Virus record (IMG/VR): IMGVR_UViG_3300031998_000005
Strand: one strand, 5' to 3'
DNA length: 64,000 nucleotides
DNA from: a virus
Lineage: Duplodnaviria; Caudoviricetes
Part shown: one piece after another, positions 23,283 through 41,684 of the stretch
Numbering within the stretch: the stretch's first letter is position 1
Layout of the letters: every line of letters starts with the position of its first letter
Translations under genes and position numbers: made by a program
Notes under the pieces: model-generated
What the model was told of the DNA's origin: nothing
Seen by the model: only the letters and a program-made list of their open reading frames with translations
Database searches by the model: none

Positions 23283-24182
23283 TTAAACCTCAAAGGAACT
23301 CTTATTCGGGTATTTGCCTGCCAAATAGTCCTTTGTAAGCCTTACGTGCTTGCCATCTGTGTCATTAAAGCACACAACCTGGCGGGTATCGGCTTCTGCG
23401 AACATCTGCTTGGAGAACGTAGGCATTTCAAAATAACCCTTATGGGGGAACTTGTCGCTGTGGACAGACATCCCCGCCACATTTTGAGCCATCATCAACA
23501 TCATATGGTTATAGTCGTGGTCTCTACGCCACTTGCCCAAACCCTTGGAAATTCTATCCCACTCGTCATTCAAGAACGCCTTACAGAACTCGGCATTGTA
23601 AACCTGGAACAAGTGATGCCAATGATAATAGGGCAATGGCTTGGCATAGTGGTCCATAACCAACTTATGCCCGTTCGTCAAGGTTTTACGGAACTGATTG
23701 AACACGCCATAAGCATCACGGCTCTCAAAGAAAGCCAAAGGTTTCCCGTCCTGCTCAAAGCAAGAATCATCCACAGGGGCATTGACATACATATCGTCAT
23801 TTGACAAAATGAAATTGCCCTTCAAGTCCAATTCCTTAATGGCACAAAGTTCAATAGTGCTACTATTGAAACAGGGTCTATGCTTATCGGGAATAAACTC
23901 GTTATGGTAATGGGCTACAATGCGAGGGTCATCTTTACGCAAGAATGACGGGAACTGCGACGGTTGCATTAAGAGCAGATGAACCTTGGTCAAAGACTTG
24001 TAGTTCTGCTCCAACGCCCGCCACCAATACTTGAAAAGCCCGTGGCTAGAATACCTACGACGAAATGGCACGAAGAAAATCTGTCGTGCCTTTTCATTCT
24101 TGGGGTGTAAGTTCTTCGCTTTTAGAAAAACATCAAGCCAAGCATCGTCATCGGATTCCACAAAGGGAATGACTATATCCAA
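23283..24182 (-). CDS. Stealth-family hexose-1-phosphate transferase
   Basis: CR1 DIVIPFVESDDDAW, CR2 HNEFIP..HRPCFNSSTIE and FILSNDDMY, CR4 VVCFND; TTG start with AAGGAG SD. Confidence 0.88.
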   Translation of the reverse strand: MDIVIPFVESDDDAWLDVFLKAKNLHPKNEKARQIFFVPFRRRYSSHGLFKYWWRALEQNYKSLTKVHLLLMQPSQFPSFLRKDDPRIVAHYHNEFIPDKHRPCFNSSTIELCAIKELDLKGNFILSNDDMYVNAPVDDSCFEQDGKPLAFFESRDAYGVFNQFRKTLTNGHKLVMDHYAKPLPYYHWHHLFQVYNAEFCKAFLNDEWDRISKGLGKWRRDHDYNHMMLMMAQNVAGMSVHSDKFPHKGYFEMPTFSKQMFAEADTRQVVCFNDTDGKHVRLTKDYLAGKYPNKSSFEV

Positions 24183-28631: not shown

Positions 28632-28762
28632 TTCTGCTTGCCTTCGTCAGCCGTGGGCTTGGGGAACTTGTTATAGTTAATACAAGCCTTAACCCCGCCC
28701 ATACGATTGGCACAATAAGTCTTGGAATTACACGTATTGCAAAGAGATTCTTTTGCCATCAT
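28628..28762 (-). CDS. 44 aa Cys-rich protein, possibly Zn-binding
   Basis: Not in ORF track; MMAKESLCNTCNSKTYCANRMGGVKAC...; overlapping start/stop coupling at both ends. Confidence 0.6.
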   Translation of the reverse strand: MMAKESLCNTCNSKTYCANRMGGVKACINYNKFPKPTADEGKQK

Positions 28763-29223
28763 TATTCCTTTGGTTCAACTACATCTGCGGTGTTAAGCAA
28801 GATGTGATACAACTGCTCCGACAGCCCAAAGCGGTCTTTGTTCACTTCAAGCGACTGCCGAATGTTGCCACCCTTGTTTCGCTTACAGGCTGCAAGCCAA
28901 TCAAGCCACATTTCTACCAACTGCATAAGGTTCATCCCATCTATGCCGTTTTCAAAATGTTGCGGGTGGTGGTCATTGACCTCGTAGTGATGGTCAAGAG
29001 CAGGACCAAGATATTCAAGCGATTTCTTGTATTCGTCCGAACCATACTGATGCTTGGACAGATGTTGGTGTGTGCCAACATAATCAAAGCGTTCCTTTTC
29101 GGGGTCGTGCAGTTTAGATTCATCGTGTCTTTCCGCACGGTCCATAATGTCCGTGCAGAAATCCGTGGCAAAGTCCACGACCATTTGACGATGGGCAAGC
29201 GTATCTTGTGTAGAGTCAGCCAT
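28762..29223 (-). CDS. DUF5662-like HD-type protein
   Basis: RHDESKL, ALDHHYEVNDHHPQHF, MNLMQLVEMWLDWLAA. Confidence 0.75.
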   Translation of the reverse strand: MADSTQDTLAHRQMVVDFATDFCTDIMDRAERHDESKLHDPEKERFDYVGTHQHLSKHQYGSDEYKKSLEYLGPALDHHYEVNDHHPQHFENGIDGMNLMQLVEMWLDWLAACKRNKGGNIRQSLEVNKDRFGLSEQLYHILLNTADVVEPKE

Positions 29224-29519
29224 TAGACCTTACCCGCCTTCTTGCTGATTTCATTTTCAATCGCCTTGGCATTAGCACGACGGAGCAAGGACAGACGAAC
29301 AGCAAGCGTATCACGATAGTCACGCATAAAGTTGAACTGCTCACAAAGCAGTCCATACTGTTCTTCGCCTACCTTTTTGATAAAGGTATCGCCCAAGTTC
29401 AACGCAGCATTCAAGCGTTCAACCCTGCCTGCAATTTCGTCAAATTCCACTTCAAGAGAAACGATGACTTCGGCAACGCTCTTTACAGGGGTCTTCTTGA
29501 TATTCTTCTTTTTAGCCAT
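29223..29519 (-). CDS. crAss001_48-like helical hairpin protein
   Basis: E..E...RVERL...F......Q..LL.EQ...M..Y...L..RL pattern. Confidence 0.6.
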   Translation of the reverse strand: MAKKKNIKKTPVKSVAEVIVSLEVEFDEIAGRVERLNAALNLGDTFIKKVGEEQYGLLCEQFNFMRDYRDTLAVRLSLLRRANAKAIENEISKKAGKV

Positions 29520-29534
29520 TGTAGTAATCCTCCA

Positions 29535-30056
29535 TTAAACCTTGGATGTTCCTTCCACGCCACGCTTTACACGGGCATTAGTTCTCTTACGAAGCCACAT
29601 AAGGGCTTCTTCAATCTTCGTAATAGCACAAGCGTTTTCACGGCACTTGTATTCGGACTTTTGGAAACTTTCAAGACGGCACAAGACCATACCAAGCAAG
29701 TCTTCATTGGCAACGCCATTCACACCATTTTCCTTGATAGGACCTTCCTGGAAATTCACAACACCGACCACAAGGTTCTGCCCCTTGTGTTCACCTTCGG
29801 TATCGGGCTTGGCTGCGATAACCTTAAAGTGGTGCGGAGCATTGAACTTGTAATCCGCTTCGTGAATAATCATCGTGTAATTCTGCGTTAGCAAGTCGTG
29901 ATTGAGAACCACATAACTAGGTGCATTATTCACATCGGATTTCTTGGCAGCACCTTTCTTCACTGCGGTCTTTGCACCCTTTTTCGGAGTAGCCTTGACC
30001 GCCTTCTTCGGAGCGGTTTTCTTTTCTGTCTTCGGAGCAACTTTTTTAGTAGCCAT
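29535..30056 (-). CDS. tad1: Tad1-like immune-signal sponge with Lys/Ala-rich N-terminal tail
   Basis: NFQEGPIKENGVNGVANEDLL...RLESFQ...CRENACAITKIEEALMWLRKRT..R..RGVEGT closely follows the Tad1 sequence pattern. Confidence 0.8.
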   Translation of the reverse strand: MATKKVAPKTEKKTAPKKAVKATPKKGAKTAVKKGAAKKSDVNNAPSYVVLNHDLLTQNYTMIIHEADYKFNAPHHFKVIAAKPDTEGEHKGQNLVVGVVNFQEGPIKENGVNGVANEDLLGMVLCRLESFQKSEYKCRENACAITKIEEALMWLRKRTNARVKRGVEGTSKV

Positions 30057-30077: not shown

Positions 30078-31202
30078 TTAAACACTATACATTCCGTAGA
30101 TAACACCCAGGATAAACACAAAGATTACCCCGATGAAATACATTACGAACCTACTGATTTCCGTCTTCTCATTAAAGAGCAAAATGAACGGGTCAAAAAT
30201 TTCCTTACGCATAGTAAGTTCGGGTCGCTTGAGTGCAGGCTTTTTCACGGGAACACCCGCCAACTCCACGAGAGCCGTATAAATATCCCTTTGGAAATCT
30301 TCCAAGTATTCCACAGGAACACGCTTGACACGTCCGTGCAAATTATCGCCACCGATTTCGCCATCTTGTAGGATTCTAGGTTCTTCGGTATCATCGCCAA
30401 TAAAAACAGTAAAGGTATCGCCACAATAGATACCCTTGTGTGCAGATACCTCCCAAATAGTCGGTTCTACAACCAAGGTATGCGGGCGACACTTATAAGA
30501 ATCCCAAGAGTCACCCAAGAAAGTAGAAAGCACACCACTAGCCGAAGATATTGTCCATATACGGCAAGGCACGATACCATCATTCCCCATAAATCGGGCG
30601 AACATACGACGGTGGCAGATGTCATAGCATTTCTTTACAGCGTGGTCGGCATCTACACAGGAACTATGCCATTCTTCAAACAAAGCACCTACAATCGCCC
30701 TGCCGATATAGAAATGATGGGTTGTAATCGGAATTATCCCAATGTTATTCGGGAACATATTTTCTTCAAGAACGATACCCTTGTTCGGAAGCAGAACCTC
30801 TCTAAAATACGGAGATACAGACAAGCCGTCAAGTATCATAGCCATATACGGACTATCATCATCCGTAATATAAAGAGCCATATCTATCGGAGTGCCTGGT
30901 ATCAAAGTCCACTTGCTATGCGGGTCTTTAACCAATGTAAGAATATACAGGTCATACAAGAAGCCAACCACCGCAGCGGTAGTCCTGCCTGCACCCAAAC
31001 AACCCGCCATAATCACGTCCGTATATTGAGAACGCAACGGGTCTGCATACACATCCTTGAGAACACCCAACCAATAAGGATAGATGTCTTTGAACACCTT
31101 ACCCAAGTATTCGGGGTCTTTTATGAATGTTTCAATATCTACAGGAATAGCCTTCAAGTCCTGTGGTTCTAGGTTTATCATAACTGCTCTCTCCTTGCCC
31201 AT
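30078..31202 (-). CDS. Degenerate terminase-ATPase paralog with C-terminal TM helix
   Basis: Colinear with the N-terminal domain of 39879-41684; Walker A GAGRTT, Walker B ALFEE; no nuclease domain. Confidence 0.8.
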   Translation of the reverse strand: MGKERAVMINLEPQDLKAIPVDIETFIKDPEYLGKVFKDIYPYWLGVLKDVYADPLRSQYTDVIMAGCLGAGRTTAAVVGFLYDLYILTLVKDPHSKWTLIPGTPIDMALYITDDDSPYMAMILDGLSVSPYFREVLLPNKGIVLEENMFPNNIGIIPITTHHFYIGRAIVGALFEEWHSSCVDADHAVKKCYDICHRRMFARFMGNDGIVPCRIWTISSASGVLSTFLGDSWDSYKCRPHTLVVEPTIWEVSAHKGIYCGDTFTVFIGDDTEEPRILQDGEIGGDNLHGRVKRVPVEYLEDFQRDIYTALVELAGVPVKKPALKRPELTMRKEIFDPFILLFNEKTEISRFVMYFIGVIFVFILGVIYGMYSV

Positions 31203-31690
31203 TCTGCAATAAGGATAGCGTCAGCGTCCTTATGCTTGCGAATAACCTTTTCTTGGTCGGGGAACAAACGAAGCCCGATGTCCATAGACGCTTTCTTCAG
31301 TTCTGGGGCACCCTGCACACCTTTAGGCAACAAAGCCCCCTGCCACTGACGGGAGTCAGCATACAGATGGGGGATTCCCAAATCTTCAATGACACACAAG
31401 GTCGCTTCAAGCGAACGGGCTGCTGACACGGATGCCTGGAAACGCATAGGGTTAATCATAGGTCGCTCAATCACAGCAACAATTTCGCTAGAAGCAATAC
31501 CACTACCCATAAGGTCAATGAGCCACTGCTTCAAAGCAAGATGGTCAATGCGAGAAATAATCTTCTTCGCCTTGGTATAACTCTGTTCCTTGATAATCGG
31601 AGTTTCAATGATTTGGGCAGGACAATCGCCTACACAGGCAATAGTTCCCGTAGTTCCGTTATCCACGCCAACATAGATTTTATGTGCCAT
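31178..31690 (-). CDS. RuvC-like Holliday junction resolvase
   Basis: YVGVDNG, AVIERP, QWQ, DADAILIA. Confidence 0.82.
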   Translation of the reverse strand: MAHKIYVGVDNGTTGTIACVGDCPAQIIETPIIKEQSYTKAKKIISRIDHLALKQWLIDLMGSGIASSEIVAVIERPMINPMRFQASVSAARSLEATLCVIEDLGIPHLYADSRQWQGALLPKGVQGAPELKKASMDIGLRLFPDQEKVIRKHKDADAILIAEWARREQL

Positions 31691-31691
31691 A

Positions 31692-32315
31692 TTAACCTAA
31701 TGCCTCATCTATCTGCTTAAAAAGTTCTCGTTCTGCAACCACATCGCCTGCACAATACTGACCGATTTCGTCCGTCCTACCCTGTCGGAAAAGGGATGGA
31801 ACTTCCGAACCGCAAACAGAACCCTTGGGGTCTTCAATGTTAAGGAGCAGGCAAGCGGAGCGTAGCGACATTGATGCACCGCCACCGAAACGCATAAGTT
31901 CCATCGTGTCAATATGCGGAATATCCCACGGCTTCTTTCCGCTGAAATTAAGAGATTTCGGCACATACCTACGCTGTGCCATAAAACGCTTTGCCAAGAA
32001 AGGAATGTCAAAACCCTTAATGTTATGACCAATCAGTATCACGTTTTCGCTGTCAAGGAACGATTCAAGAGTTTCAAGCATTTCTGCTTCTTCTTCTACA
32101 CTCCCTGCCGTCAATACCTTTGGAGCGTCATCACCATAGGCATTGGCATAGGCAACTGCACAAACCATACCAAACTCTGCGTGGAGAGCAGCCATATCTT
32201 CCAATTCCTGCCCTTCCTTGCCAGGGTATTTTGTCGCAGCCCAAATCGGGTAGAACGTGTCCATAATCCCAGGACGGGGAGTAGTTTCTATGTCTATAAC
32301 GAATTTTCTAGCCAT
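31692..32315 (-). CDS. 3'-5' exonuclease, DnaQ/PolB-exo-like
   Basis: IDIET, GHNIKGFDIPFL, HIDTM, YCAGDV. Confidence 0.88.
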   Translation of the reverse strand: MARKFVIDIETTPRPGIMDTFYPIWAATKYPGKEGQELEDMAALHAEFGMVCAVAYANAYGDDAPKVLTAGSVEEEAEMLETLESFLDSENVILIGHNIKGFDIPFLAKRFMAQRRYVPKSLNFSGKKPWDIPHIDTMELMRFGGGASMSLRSACLLLNIEDPKGSVCGSEVPSLFRQGRTDEIGQYCAGDVVAERELFKQIDEALG

Positions 32316-37634: not shown

Positions 37635-38012
37635 TTACTCCGCAAGCGACAAAAGCCTACCCACGTCCTTATCCGTATGCCCGTCAAAATGCTTTGCCCG
37701 TTCAAGTTCGGGGCATTTGAACATATCCCAATCCTTATCTTCATAGTGATAGGAATACGGACCATCGGGGGTATCTATGCAGACAACAAACCACCCGCCC
37801 CCGAAACAAAGTTCCCCATCTTCGTGCCTATGCGATTTCCAGGACAGGTCGGGAAACAGGTTCACGAGCGTAGCAAACAAGACGCACCGCTGTCTGTAAA
37901 GACTATTGAACGTATGAAACCCATCCGAAAGTTCCCCTACATCCGACACGCCCGCCATTTCAGCCGCGGTCTGCATAATCTCTTTCATCTGTTCATCACT
38001 TACTCTTGTCAT
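37635..38012 (-). CDS. WDGH-domain phage protein
   Basis: SDGFHTFNSLY, WKSHRHEDG, WFVV, SYHY, FDGHT. Confidence 0.75.
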   Translation of the reverse strand: MTRVSDEQMKEIMQTAAEMAGVSDVGELSDGFHTFNSLYRQRCVLFATLVNLFPDLSWKSHRHEDGELCFGGGWFVVCIDTPDGPYSYHYEDKDWDMFKCPELERAKHFDGHTDKDVGRLLSLAE

Positions 38013-38797
38013 ACAATACCTAACTTTTGGTCAATGATTTTACGGGTAAGCCCCTCAAGGGTTTCCACTTTCCTGTTTCCCAAGTATGCCCCGATTTCAA
38101 CGCTGAAATCTCGGCAGGGAATATACTCCCACCCATCACGCTTCAAATGGACTAGGGCTAACTCCCCGACCCGCAAATTGGTCATACGCTCTATAAGCAA
38201 CTTATAAGTGCTTAATTGTGCAGAATAGTGGATGTAATTGCAATCGGGCAAACCTTCAAGCGGTCCGATACATTGTTGGAACGGGTTTTCCTTTTTGATT
38301 TCCTTGTTCGTCTTCCAATCCAGGATAGCAATACAATCTTCCCCCCTATCCCAACAAAGGTAGTCAATCGTTCCACACAAAGCCCATTCGGGCTTATAAA
38401 CAATGAACTCATTACGAATAGGCACAAACCGTCGGCACAGACGATTGTAGGCTTCCAATCCGTTCTTCCTAACACGCTCGTAATCGCCAACAGGTTCTAC
38501 GGGCTGATAGTGCTTACGTTTCCACAAGTTCTCCATATAACTATGGACTTGCGTTCCCATAGACGCAGCCTCGTTCTTGTTCTTATCCCACATAGCCTTG
38601 ACATCGGCTACCGCCATATTGTGCTTGACGGCATACTTTTCGGCTATCTTATCCCAATCTTGTTCTTCACAGAACTCGTGGACGAACTTGGTGACGGACG
38701 TGTATTTTGTTCCAAGGGAATCCGTGTAAGTATGAGTTTCTTCTTCAAAGAAAATATCACGGAATTTCCACAATTCTATGTCCAAATCACAGACCAT
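38009..38797 (-). CDS. PD-(D/E)XK exonuclease
   Basis: Likely start ATG 38797; SVT, GTQVH, CGTID, ILDWKT, YSAQLSTY. Confidence 0.85.
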   Translation of the reverse strand: MVCDLDIELWKFRDIFFEEETHTYTDSLGTKYTSVTKFVHEFCEEQDWDKIAEKYAVKHNMAVADVKAMWDKNKNEAASMGTQVHSYMENLWKRKHYQPVEPVGDYERVRKNGLEAYNRLCRRFVPIRNEFIVYKPEWALCGTIDYLCWDRGEDCIAILDWKTNKEIKKENPFQQCIGPLEGLPDCNYIHYSAQLSTYKLLIERMTNLRVGELALVHLKRDGWEYIPCRDFSVEIGAYLGNRKVETLEGLTRKIIDQKLGIV

Positions 38798-39857
38798 AAA
38801 CAGATGCCTTTTCGCAGAACACGTTATGGTCCCAATACTGAATAGCGTTGGCAAACCATTCCACCTGTTCCATAGAAATAGGTGTAAAATTGTGATAGTC
38901 CGCAGCCAGGTCAAACCCGTTCTTCTTGGCGAACGCCCTGCCGTGGATATGACCATACAGCACAATGTTATCGGGGTATTCGGGGGTCATCGTTCCTTCA
39001 TCGGGTTCGTGAACCACGTAGTAAGTCCGTCCGTTCTGCTTGAACTGCTCCGCAGACGAAAGCACAATATCCCTGCCCATATAGGAAAGTTCCTTTTCAA
39101 CCTCGGACATAATCTCTCGGTCGTAGTTCCCAAGGACAAAATACAGGGTCTTGAAATTAAGGCAGGACACAATATCCCGCATAGTGGAAATATCCCCGAA
39201 ATCCCCTGCGTGGTAAACATCATCGTTCATCGTGACGGACTTGTTCCAATTAGAAATCATCGTCAAGTCCATAAAGTTCGTGTCCACGAAAGGTCTGCGG
39301 GAAAGTTCAAGAGTTCTCTGCTGTGAGAAATGAGTATCGGAGATAAAGAACTTTGTGGTCGCCCTGTTCAACCTGGACACCACAGCAGTCAGCATTTCTT
39401 CCAAGTCAGTCCAATATGGGATTTTCTCCTGTTCAAGTCGGACTTTAAGGTAATCGTTCTTTTCTGCGTCATCGGGGAAACCGCAGAACACGCCAGGCTT
39501 GTTATACCAATCCCCGAACTCAATGTTTGTCGTGAAAGCGGGGAAACCCCTGTCTATGTGTCTATCCACCCAAAAGACGATGGCAGATGCCTTGTGCATA
39601 GCGATGGTTTCCCACTCGGTCTGCACCCGCAAGGATTCCTTGCCATACTTATCACGCAGTTCTTGAAACCTATCGTTTGTCGGGGTAATCACGTTCCCGT
39701 CAAAGCCAAGGCGTTCCAAGATGTCAAACGCCTCGTTTCGCCAATCGTTAGAGTAATCTTCACGGGGACACGGTCCTGCCAAGAAGATGGAATTATTCAA
39801 CCCACAGGCTAGTTGTTCCTGCGGGGCAAGTTCGGGATTTACTTTAATTATCTTCAT
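38787..39857 (-). CDS. Fusion of nucleoside 2-deoxyribosyltransferase-like and calcineurin-like metallophosphoesterase domains
   Basis: SIFLAGP, WR, QTEWE, TTNIEFG; then SDTHF, GDFG, GNYD, HEP, GHIH. Confidence 0.82.
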   Translation of the reverse strand: MKIIKVNPELAPQEQLACGLNNSIFLAGPCPREDYSNDWRNEAFDILERLGFDGNVITPTNDRFQELRDKYGKESLRVQTEWETIAMHKASAIVFWVDRHIDRGFPAFTTNIEFGDWYNKPGVFCGFPDDAEKNDYLKVRLEQEKIPYWTDLEEMLTAVVSRLNRATTKFFISDTHFSQQRTLELSRRPFVDTNFMDLTMISNWNKSVTMNDDVYHAGDFGDISTMRDIVSCLNFKTLYFVLGNYDREIMSEVEKELSYMGRDIVLSSAEQFKQNGRTYYVVHEPDEGTMTPEYPDNIVLYGHIHGRAFAKKNGFDLAADYHNFTPISMEQVEWFANAIQYWDHNVFCEKASVYGL

Positions 39858-39878: not shown

Positions 39879-41684
39879 CTACGATTTCTTCATTTTGAAG
39901 AAATTTTCCATAATGTATTCCTTGCGTTGGTTCATCGTCATAGATGTCGGCTTGGACTTTTGGAGTTCCAACAGCGAGGATGCACCAAGGGTCATAGACG
40001 CTCCGATGGCTTCATAGGAACTTGACGCAACGGAGTCGGCAATATCCTTACCGCCCTCCTGCTGTTTGCCATCCACGACAATCACGGCAGGGTGGTCAAT
40101 CTTCTTCGGTAGGTTCTGCAAGTTAATCAGTTCGTTTCTCAAAATCTGCGACTTGGGCATTTTTATCAAGCCCAACAGGATATTACTACTCAATTTCAAA
40201 TACGGGTCTTTGGTCTTATCCACGGACGCATACTTGACATTAAATCCCATCTTCGTGAGCAACTGCATCATATCTGCGGATTGGTAGCCATCGCACGTAA
40301 TCTGTGCAATACTAATCCCGTTGCTACGCAGATAGTTAAGGAACACACGGACTTTCCAAAACGGGACCTCGCTCCCAGGTAGAGCCTTGATACCGAACAC
40401 AAGCGGGGTTTCAATGGCGGGGCTAATCTTACTCACAGGGCTTCCGTCAATAGCCGACACGGAATTTACCCTAATGTTCTCCGTAACTCGGCTCATAGCA
40501 AAGCCAAATCGGTCGCTACGCAGACCGCCATCCAAGTGGACGTAGTATTGACCTTTCGGCAAGTTCCCCTTGTAAAAATCGCTGATTTGGTCGTTCTCGT
40601 TCAAGGTCAAATGCAACTCGTCCGTTGTCATACAATTTTCAAGGCACATTGACTTGTCAAGGGCTTCCACATTGTAAATCAAGTTCACGCCATTACGGGT
40701 AGCAACACCCGCCAAGTCCTGCAAAGCACCTGGAAGGTTCGTTTCAAATTCAGTCCTGTATTCAACAGGCACTTGTATCGTCCTGCCCGTGTAATCGTCC
40801 ATTTCCTTTTCGGACGTGATGATTTTCGGCTGTTCAACATCCGAACCGATAAACACGGGGAAAGTCTTACCGCTATAAATCCCCTTGTAGGACTGCACAT
40901 CCCAAATGGCAGGCTCAAAGATAATCACGTGCGGGTCGTTTCGCACTGCGTCAATGTGGCTTTCCAAGAATGACGAACTATCGTTTCTTGACGAGATAAG
41001 CCACCTACGGCACGGGAGCGTTCCACCCTTGAGCATAAAACGGGATTTCATTCTTCGGGTAATCGTATCGTAGTTCTTCACAGCCTGGTCTGCCACCTTG
41101 TCTTGGAAGTTGGCTTCGTCTATGATAGCCCCGATAACAGCCTTACCCAAGTTATGACCGCCACGAGAGCCGTAGCCGATACCTACGTGATGGGGAAACA
41201 TATCTTCATCAAGCCGTTCGCCCTTTTTCGGGTTGAACTTGGAGCAGAAATAGGGGGATGCCCCCATAGCGTCTAGGAATTGGTTAGCCATAACCGCCGA
41301 TGCCAGGTCCATCGTGGCGGTAACGAGCGAAAAAATGATGGACGTGGTAGAGAGCAGTTTATACTTGCGGTGGGGGTCTTTCAGCAGGGTCACGTGGTAA
41401 AGGTCATACATCGCACCCATCAAGGCAAAGGAGGTCTTTCCCGCACCGATACAGCCCGTAACACAGACCTCTTCGTAGGGCGAGTAGAGCGGGTTCGGGA
41501 ATACCTTGTGCAAAGCGTCCATCCAATAGGGATAGACCTGTCCGTTTCCGTAAATCTGCCCAAGGTAGTAGGGGTCGTTCAAAAAGGTATCTATGTCCAC
41601 GGGAACAGACTCGTAGCCCTCCGCCATCGCGGCAGCCTTATACAAGTCAGTTGTGCTTAATCCCGAAAGTCCGCTTTCAGCCAT
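39879..41684 (-). CDS. terL: Terminase large subunit
   Basis: Walker A GCIGAGKT, Walker B AIIDE, motif III LISS, nuclease YVHLDG, DGYQS, KIDHP, KDIADS. Confidence 0.92.
   Translation of the reverse strand: MAESGLSGLSTTDLYKAAAMAEGYESVPVDIDTFLNDPYYLGQIYGNGQVYPYWMDALHKVFPNPLYSPYEEVCVTGCIGAGKTSFALMGAMYDLYHVTLLKDPHRKYKLLSTTSIIFSLVTATMDLASAVMANQFLDAMGASPYFCSKFNPKKGERLDEDMFPHHVGIGYGSRGGHNLGKAVIGAIIDEANFQDKVADQAVKNYDTITRRMKSRFMLKGGTLPCRRWLISSRNDSSSFLESHIDAVRNDPHVIIFEPAIWDVQSYKGIYSGKTFPVFIGSDVEQPKIITSEKEMDDYTGRTIQVPVEYRTEFETNLPGALQDLAGVATRNGVNLIYNVEALDKSMCLENCMTTDELHLTLNENDQISDFYKGNLPKGQYYVHLDGGLRSDRFGFAMSRVTENIRVNSVSAIDGSPVSKISPAIETPLVFGIKALPGSEVPFWKVRVFLNYLRSNGISIAQITCDGYQSADMMQLLTKMGFNVKYASVDKTKDPYLKLSSNILLGLIKMPKSQILRNELINLQNLPKKIDHPAVIVVDGKQQEGGKDIADSVASSSYEAIGASMTLGASSLLELQKSKPTSMTMNQRKEYIMENFFKMKKS

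Follow-up and report, generated by a model that had tools for sequence, protein, structure and literature searches.

In the 64,000-base stretch of virus DNA analyzed here (hereafter the window), one minus-strand gene encodes a stand-alone copy of the terminase ATPase domain that is under purifying selection and is dispensable within its phage family. Phylogeny points to a single old duplication of the family's own large terminase gene (terL), since which selection appears to have preserved the shape of the domain while its chemistry was lost. We tentatively favor reading the product as a terminase look-alike that lacks catalysis, acts by binding, and is directed against the host; its binding partner and any role in counter-defense are speculative.

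A terminase ATPase domain without its nuclease

The window lies within a 215,686-base virus record (46.8% G+C; 99% complete according to CheckV), the first bases of which recur at 215,171. A frame of 374 codons is open at 30078-31202 on the minus strand. The true start is likely the ATG at 31181 (367 aa) rather than 31202, given that this ATG shares bases with the RuvC-like stop codon (ATGA), is preceded by AAGGAG 8-9 bases upstream, and yields the length of database orthologs (367 aa). Through the ATGA overlap, the paralog is translationally coupled to the RuvC-like gene (Table 1).

Residues 17-352 of the paralog align with residues 25-370 of the 601-aa terL product at 41% identity (349 columns, E 7e-83), and all three segment pairs from which the initial annotation had argued colinearity with TerL fall within this alignment. 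The same comparison confirms the motif changes described there, GAGRT for GAGKT in Walker A and LFEE for IIDE in Walker B, as well as the missing nuclease half, with no alignment of the paralog past TerL residue 370. According to its AF2 model (pLDDT 85) and Foldseek, the paralog has an ASCE ATPase fold with a lid subdomain, the best PDB matches all being terminase ATPase domains (E 3e-5 to 1e-3). Pfam, PHROG, and PADLOC gave no name for it. Complex prediction for TerL (residues 20-575) with the paralog (residues 1-315) scored 0.00, which is evidence in neither direction.

The 601-aa ORF encodes a complete large terminase. Sequence matches to annotated terminases from cultured phages extend over as much as 94% of the protein, and its model best matches the HK97, D6E, T4, and Sf6 terminases in Foldseek, nuclease domains included. 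Pfam and PHROG searches gave no name for the ORF of this genome; its own TerL family carries Pfam PF27249. In many TerL relatives the ATPase domain is interrupted by inteins, which frequently include HNH or LAGLIDADG endonucleases (750-1030 aa); the copy at 39879-41684 contains none. Directly after terL, the gene at 38787-39857 fuses a nucleoside 2-deoxyribosyltransferase-like domain to a calcineurin-like phosphoesterase. The long ORF at 38009-38965 looks like a read-through artifact of the start call, and the close relative L127 has a 262-aa PD-(D/E)XK gene at this place.

Genome-wide, only two copies of the terminase ATPase domain were found, the paralog and TerL, and no separate gene for a C-terminal RNase H-fold nuclease is present in the genome. 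A split terminase was rejected on these grounds, terL being intact and no nuclease half free.

Table 1. Coordinates in the window of the paralog, its motifs, the parent gene, and neighboring genes.
Feature	Coordinates	Strand	Remarks
Terminase-ATPase paralog	30078..31181	-	367 aa from likely ATG start; ORF scan: 31202, 374 aa
Walker A loop, residues 60-67	30981..31004	-	Three glycines family-invariant; Lys to Arg here
Degenerate Walker B, residues 167-170	30672..30683	-	LFEE for IIDE
C-terminal hydrophobic helix, residues 345-364	30090..30149	-	Predicted tail anchor; one subclade only
Shine-Dalgarno-like AAGGAGA	31190..31196	-	Precedes ATG at 31181
Intact large terminase (TerL), parent gene	39879..41684	-	601 aa; 8.7 kb upstream of paralog
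RuvC-like Holliday junction resolvase	31178..31690	-	PHROG 1770; constant upstream neighbor; stop overlaps paralog ATG (ATGA)
PolB-type 3'-5' exonuclease	31692..32315	-	Same gene block as paralog
Acb2/Tad1-like protein	29535..30056	-	PF24729 25.5 bits (just under cut-off of 27); PHROG 2428 E 2e-43
PF21825 (Sequestin)	29223..29519	-	45.7 bits, above cut-off
DUF5662 protein	28762..29223	-	Directly follows paralog where both sponge genes are absent
Putative portal, 522 aa	33746..35314	-	Conserved, same block; no Pfam/PHROG match

Retained fold and relaxed catalytic positions

A protein search recovered 25 short homologs of the paralog (308-367 aa, 36%-93% identity), and further searching enlarged the set to 39 sequences and yielded two others besides. 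In all homologs the similarity to TerL stops at the boundary of the ATPase domain. At the Walker A lysine position, conserved in 58/58 TerLs, 26 of the 39 paralogs have arginine, 12 lysine, and one cysteine, and hence the Lys-to-Arg change on which attention first fell is not the lesion common to the family. The Walker B Asp-Glu pair, by contrast, is found in none of the 39 paralogs (it is Glu-Glu in this copy), and the catalytic glutamate is present in all 58 TerLs. The two serines of motif III occur in 56 and 58 of the 58 TerLs, compared with 15 and 22 of the 39 paralogs. Among 105 positions that are near-invariant in TerL, 54 are kept in the paralogs, comprising the core, the lid, the P-loop glycines, and an Arg-rich helix, while 51 are relaxed, comprising the Walker A lysine, motif III, and a cluster around Walker B with two nearby loops.

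These substitution patterns suggest selection that preserves shape and loses chemistry. The family probably constitutes a pseudo-ATPase without hydrolysis, and nucleotide binding may persist. Lys-to-Arg is the classic change by which nucleotide is bound and not hydrolyzed, as in RecA K72R and Rad51 K191R. The initial description of a probably inactive duplicate is supported; for this particular copy, the two changes are conservative (Lys to Arg, and Asp-Glu to Glu-Glu), and we infer inactivity from the family together with known mutant behavior.

The paralog is under purifying selection, with a pairwise dN/dS of 0.10-0.35, compared with 0.02-0.10 for terL and the portal gene. One relative shares 95%-96% identity with this phage in TerL, portal, and RuvC, and 62% in the paralog. 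We found no positive selection in a comparison of M7 with M8 on 20 sequences (LRT 0.0; all five site classes <0.5), made with our own implementation and on saturated deep branches; the Tad1-like gene was likewise not significant. As no site class exceeded 1, the faster evolution of the paralog may, as far as can be demonstrated, reflect relaxed constraint only.

Origin, loss, and gene neighborhood

In a quick maximum-likelihood tree (midpoint root, without AU test), the 39 paralogs form one clade (SH-aLRT 100) within the clade of their own phages' TerLs (99). Such nesting suggests that all paralogs descend from a single ancient duplication of the terL native to this phage family. Paralog-bearing contigs of up to 213-230 kb also encode a full terL. 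Cultured phages yielded no close relative of the paralog, the tblastn hits listed being distant terminases near 31% identity, with one place per record. A 315-aa ATPase-only terminase copy with the Walker A lysine and no Walker B (P0352, L158:10001-10948) lies within a cluster of replication genes in another phage and is possibly a further independent duplication.

The gene is optional, as three kinds of genome attest. A complete 215-kb relative (G001/L027) has lost its entire ATPase domain through an in-frame deletion that left a 66-aa ORF consisting almost only of tail, a 186-kb record (85% complete) passes directly from RuvC to DUF5662 without the paralog, and three sister phages, complete at 128-135 kb, lack the gene altogether. 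The gene is missing or deleted in complete relatives that share the TerL type. The G001 remnant (L027:19741-19941) joins the first residues to the membrane tail in its 66 aa, and may indicate a role of the tail in its own right or be a fresh remnant. The initial annotation had proposed dN/dS and tail conservation in relatives as a check on function, and decay or absence as evidence against it. Purifying selection and intact frames largely favor function, while the gene is absent from some relatives and the tail is conserved in part of the family only.

The hydrophobic tail itself is confirmed (Kyte-Doolittle 19-mer mean 2.52). It forms a single C-terminal helix with a very short end, spanning residues 341-366 of 367 in the model, through which the paralog would insert into the membrane. 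The same type of tail occurs in 19/39 paralogs, which make up one subclade (support 99), and has been kept across these 19 members though their ATPase domains are only about 50%-60% identical; the other 20 paralogs have no tail and end directly after the lid. In one syntenic family member (P0260, L157:8001-9179), an unrelated small phage domain (PHROG 10928) takes the tail's place. This C-terminal domain of roughly 75 aa is found stand-alone in Staphylococcus, Clostridioides, and Enterocloster phages, and had no match in P1-like plasmids. Being confined to one subclade, the tail is secondary to the family's core function, so that membrane sequestration or tethering, the roles first suggested, cannot be the function of the family as a whole. 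That the gene is dispensable further argues against a tether that packaging motors need.

A conserved series leads up to the paralog, from the putative portal through a 189-aa gene and then small genes to the exonuclease and the RuvC-like gene. We infer the portal from the size of the 522-aa gene and from homologs adjoining terL in distant phages. The paralog always lies downstream of the RuvC-like gene, within about 0.7 kb in syntenic loci. Its position directly upstream of a Tad1-like gene, as first described, holds for this phage, in which the Acb2/Tad1-like gene starts 21 bases past the paralog stop, but not for the family: Acb2/Tad1-like, Sequestin, and DUF5662 genes follow in 12/20 distinct loci, about half of the lineages, and other genes follow in 8/20, the RuvC-like gene being the constant neighbor. 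PF21825 is the published Sequestin 3'cADPR sponge family.

Several features of the surrounding region deserve record. The Acb2/Tad1-like protein (29535-30056) has a Lys/Ala-rich, histone-like N-terminal tail of roughly 40 residues that is kept, at variable length, in relatives. In a contig from another sample, the Sequestin gene (29223-29519) is swapped for 305 different bases between conserved flanks, which suggests allele swapping at this locus. In one relative, a gene of the Tad3 family (L004:15886-16659) lies some 5 kb farther downstream than the paralog, making a third anti-Thoeris family in the region. Elsewhere in the window, orthologs of a 299-aa gene at 23283-24182 match Stealth_CR2, a family of hexose-1-phosphate transferases that is unusual for phages.

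Most sequencing runs in which the stretch is found are metagenomes of the bovine gut. MAG labels conflict (Clostridia, Elusimicrobia, and Bacteroidaceae) and are probably the result of mis-binning; no host genes were found in the first 20 kb of G003. Fib_succ_major genes in relatives, together with a sub-threshold Fib_succ_major hit in the record itself, give only a hint of Fibrobacter or Bacteroidota as host. Contigs from two RNA runs of one study partly cover a roughly 90% identical allele, which we did not count as expression given possible DNA carry-over. A promoter scan gave results at chance level.

Candidate roles and comparison with known systems

Under the look-alike reading, the old terL duplicate would have retained the ATPase fold, lid, and P-loop, lost its nuclease and hydrolysis, and become a dispensable accessory protein that works through binding, with no part in packaging. 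It would occupy or distract a host factor that recognizes the TerL ATPase domain (Avs1-3, Upx, or another) without delivering the full activating signal, and in one branch the C-terminal helix would pin it to the membrane. This reading draws on the retention of 54/105 TerL-invariant positions alongside relaxed catalytic residues, and on a presence as patchy as that of an accessory gene. It draws also on the evolutionary rate, as the codon-model omega of the paralog (0.15) resembles that of the Acb2/Tad1-like (0.15) and Sequestin (0.17) genes and not that of the portal (0.04), RuvC, and exonuclease genes, which with the 189-aa gene and DUF5662 range over 0.04-0.09. Furthermore, two sponge-family genes directly follow the paralog in 12/20 loci, and the altered site is the one that Avs2 reads: in a second Avs2 structure, the ATPase domain alone activates via two ATPs, one of which contacts the catalytic glutamate (10.64898/2026.08.25.746987). 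T4 offers a parallel arrangement, with vs.8, encoding a stand-alone terminase-ATPase homolog, about 0.9 kb from vs.4 (L132:5079-6913), a match to the Acb2/Tad1 family at 71 bits. The authors who described such look-alikes left their role open and suggested that non-terminase look-alikes may be anti-defense proteins (PMC13601566).

Nonetheless, isolated terminase ATPase domains activate EcAvs2, Avs2-trypsin, and Upx (PMC13601566; 10.64898/2026.08.25.746987), Vs.8 with intact Walker motifs is toxic with EcAvs2, and most Walker B/nuclease double mutants remain able to trigger Upx (PMC13601566). The decoy put forward initially is plausible but would need to bind its sensor and leave it inactive, and our literature search turned up no published example of a terminase decoy. 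A look-alike aimed at the host is also weighed down by the absence of positive selection in the M7 vs M8 comparison and by the location of the gene within the portal-exonuclease-RuvC block, with sponge adjacency absent in 8/20 loci.

Alternatively, though we consider this on the unlikely side, the paralog could regulate packaging or DNA processing in its own phage without being essential. A dead subunit would cap TerL, aid its loading, or link the motor or the RuvC-like resolvase to, for example, the membrane. The constant portal-exonuclease-RuvC block, translational coupling to the RuvC-like gene, and the well-preserved lid subdomain are in keeping with this, as are the truncated copies of Rak2-like phages that adjoin terL (PMC5259590). 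However, the TerL ATPase domain is near-frozen within clusters (1-12 of 308 variable sites) compared with 35-77 variable sites in the paralog, which does not track its own TerL: identity is 42% to its own and 43%-44% to other members' TerLs, with no consistent closeness to the former. A regulator also fits poorly with a gene absent or deleted in complete relatives of the same TerL type and with a tail limited to one subclade.

A broader version of the look-alike reading, rather unlikely in our judgment, would have phages repeatedly making non-activating decoys from their most-watched domain by dropping the ATP-site contacts on which terminase-sensing immune receptors depend, the anchor in this case removing the bound sensor from the cytoplasm. 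We regard as quite improbable a re-used nucleotide-binding module, in which ATP or a signaling nucleotide would be bound and not hydrolyzed, the protein serving as a third sponge or a sensor. In its favor, the three P-loop glycines are invariant across the 39 paralogs, followed by Lys or Arg in 38/39 and Ser or Thr in 35/39, the first Walker B acid is Asp or Glu in 37/39, Lys-to-Arg fits binding without hydrolysis, and sponge genes (Acb2/Tad1 and Sequestin) lie next door. Yet a 310-aa fold would make a costly sponge, known sponges being small homo-oligomers often of <100 aa (10.1101/2025.07.12.664507), and the glycines were perhaps kept for folding alone.

The narrower decoy, one that specifically sequesters Avs1/Avs2 at the membrane, is very unlikely. 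Preservation of the tail throughout its 19-member subclade despite ATPase domains of about 50%-60% identity speaks for it, but 20/39 paralogs have no tail, one carries an unrelated domain, one genome kept the tail only and dropped the ATPase domain, and isolated ATPase domains activate Avs2. Ring ATPases are susceptible to poisoning by dead subunits, and a weapon that does this to the terminase ring of a co-infecting competitor would accord with a gene that is optional, variable, and similar to about the same degree to all TerLs of the family. We give this little credence, as the phage's own TerL, 70%-100% identical to those of relatives in the ATPase domain, must be spared, and many TerL-invariant positions near Walker B are lost. 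A decaying pseudogene or neutral duplicate, for which evolution faster than that of the neighbors and loss from two large relatives might be cited, is hardly tenable and was rejected, with 39 intact frames spanning 36%-93% identity, a clean domain boundary, pairwise dN/dS well below 1, and all site classes below 0.5.

The family bears on the general question of how phages respond to terminase sensors (Avs1-3 and Upx), which read a fold that is not easily changed. Stand-alone terminase-ATPase copies recur in unrelated phages, and the present family provides a natural test set of about 40 alleles with or without the Walker A lysine and with or without the membrane tail, in addition to genomes that have lost the gene. 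As far as searches reach, the family is undescribed in the literature. Its new features are an independent origin, a Walker B lost throughout the family, and, in a single branch, a tail anchor; proteins of this kind are themselves known and unexplained.

Like T4 Vs.8, the paralog is a stand-alone homolog of its own phage's terminase ATPase domain, lacks a nuclease, and is encoded near an Acb2/Tad1-family gene. Vs.8 differs in its length (219 aa), its retention of both Walker A and Walker B, its lack of a tail, and its toxicity with EcAvs2 (PMC13601566). Orthology to vs.8 was rejected, as hhalign gave 0.6% (single target sequence) with no significant profile match, and the paralogs nest among their own TerLs. 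Truncated large terminase copies have been reported in Rak2-like jumbo phages (CBB_274) and in the Sinorhizobium phages phiM12 and phiN3. CBB_274 resembles the paralog in being an incomplete copy that accompanies a full terminase in large myophages, a situation called unusual, but it adjoins terL, whereas the paralog lies 8.7 kb away behind RuvC; the TerL lineages differ, and no membrane tail is reported for Rak2-like copies (PMC5259590). With the ATPase domains of T4 gp17, HK97, P74-26, and D6E TerLs, the paralog shares the fold, lid, and P-loop glycines; in contrast to TerL, it has no nuclease, N-terminal extension, Walker B Asp-Glu, or motif III, shows several times higher dN/dS, and is optional. 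Ksap1 and Ksap2 are likewise lineage-specific phage proteins with a terminase-ATPase-like structure, and these engage Avs2; they differ from the paralog in being small, in having no sequence homology to TerL, and in activating Avs2 (PMC11564622).
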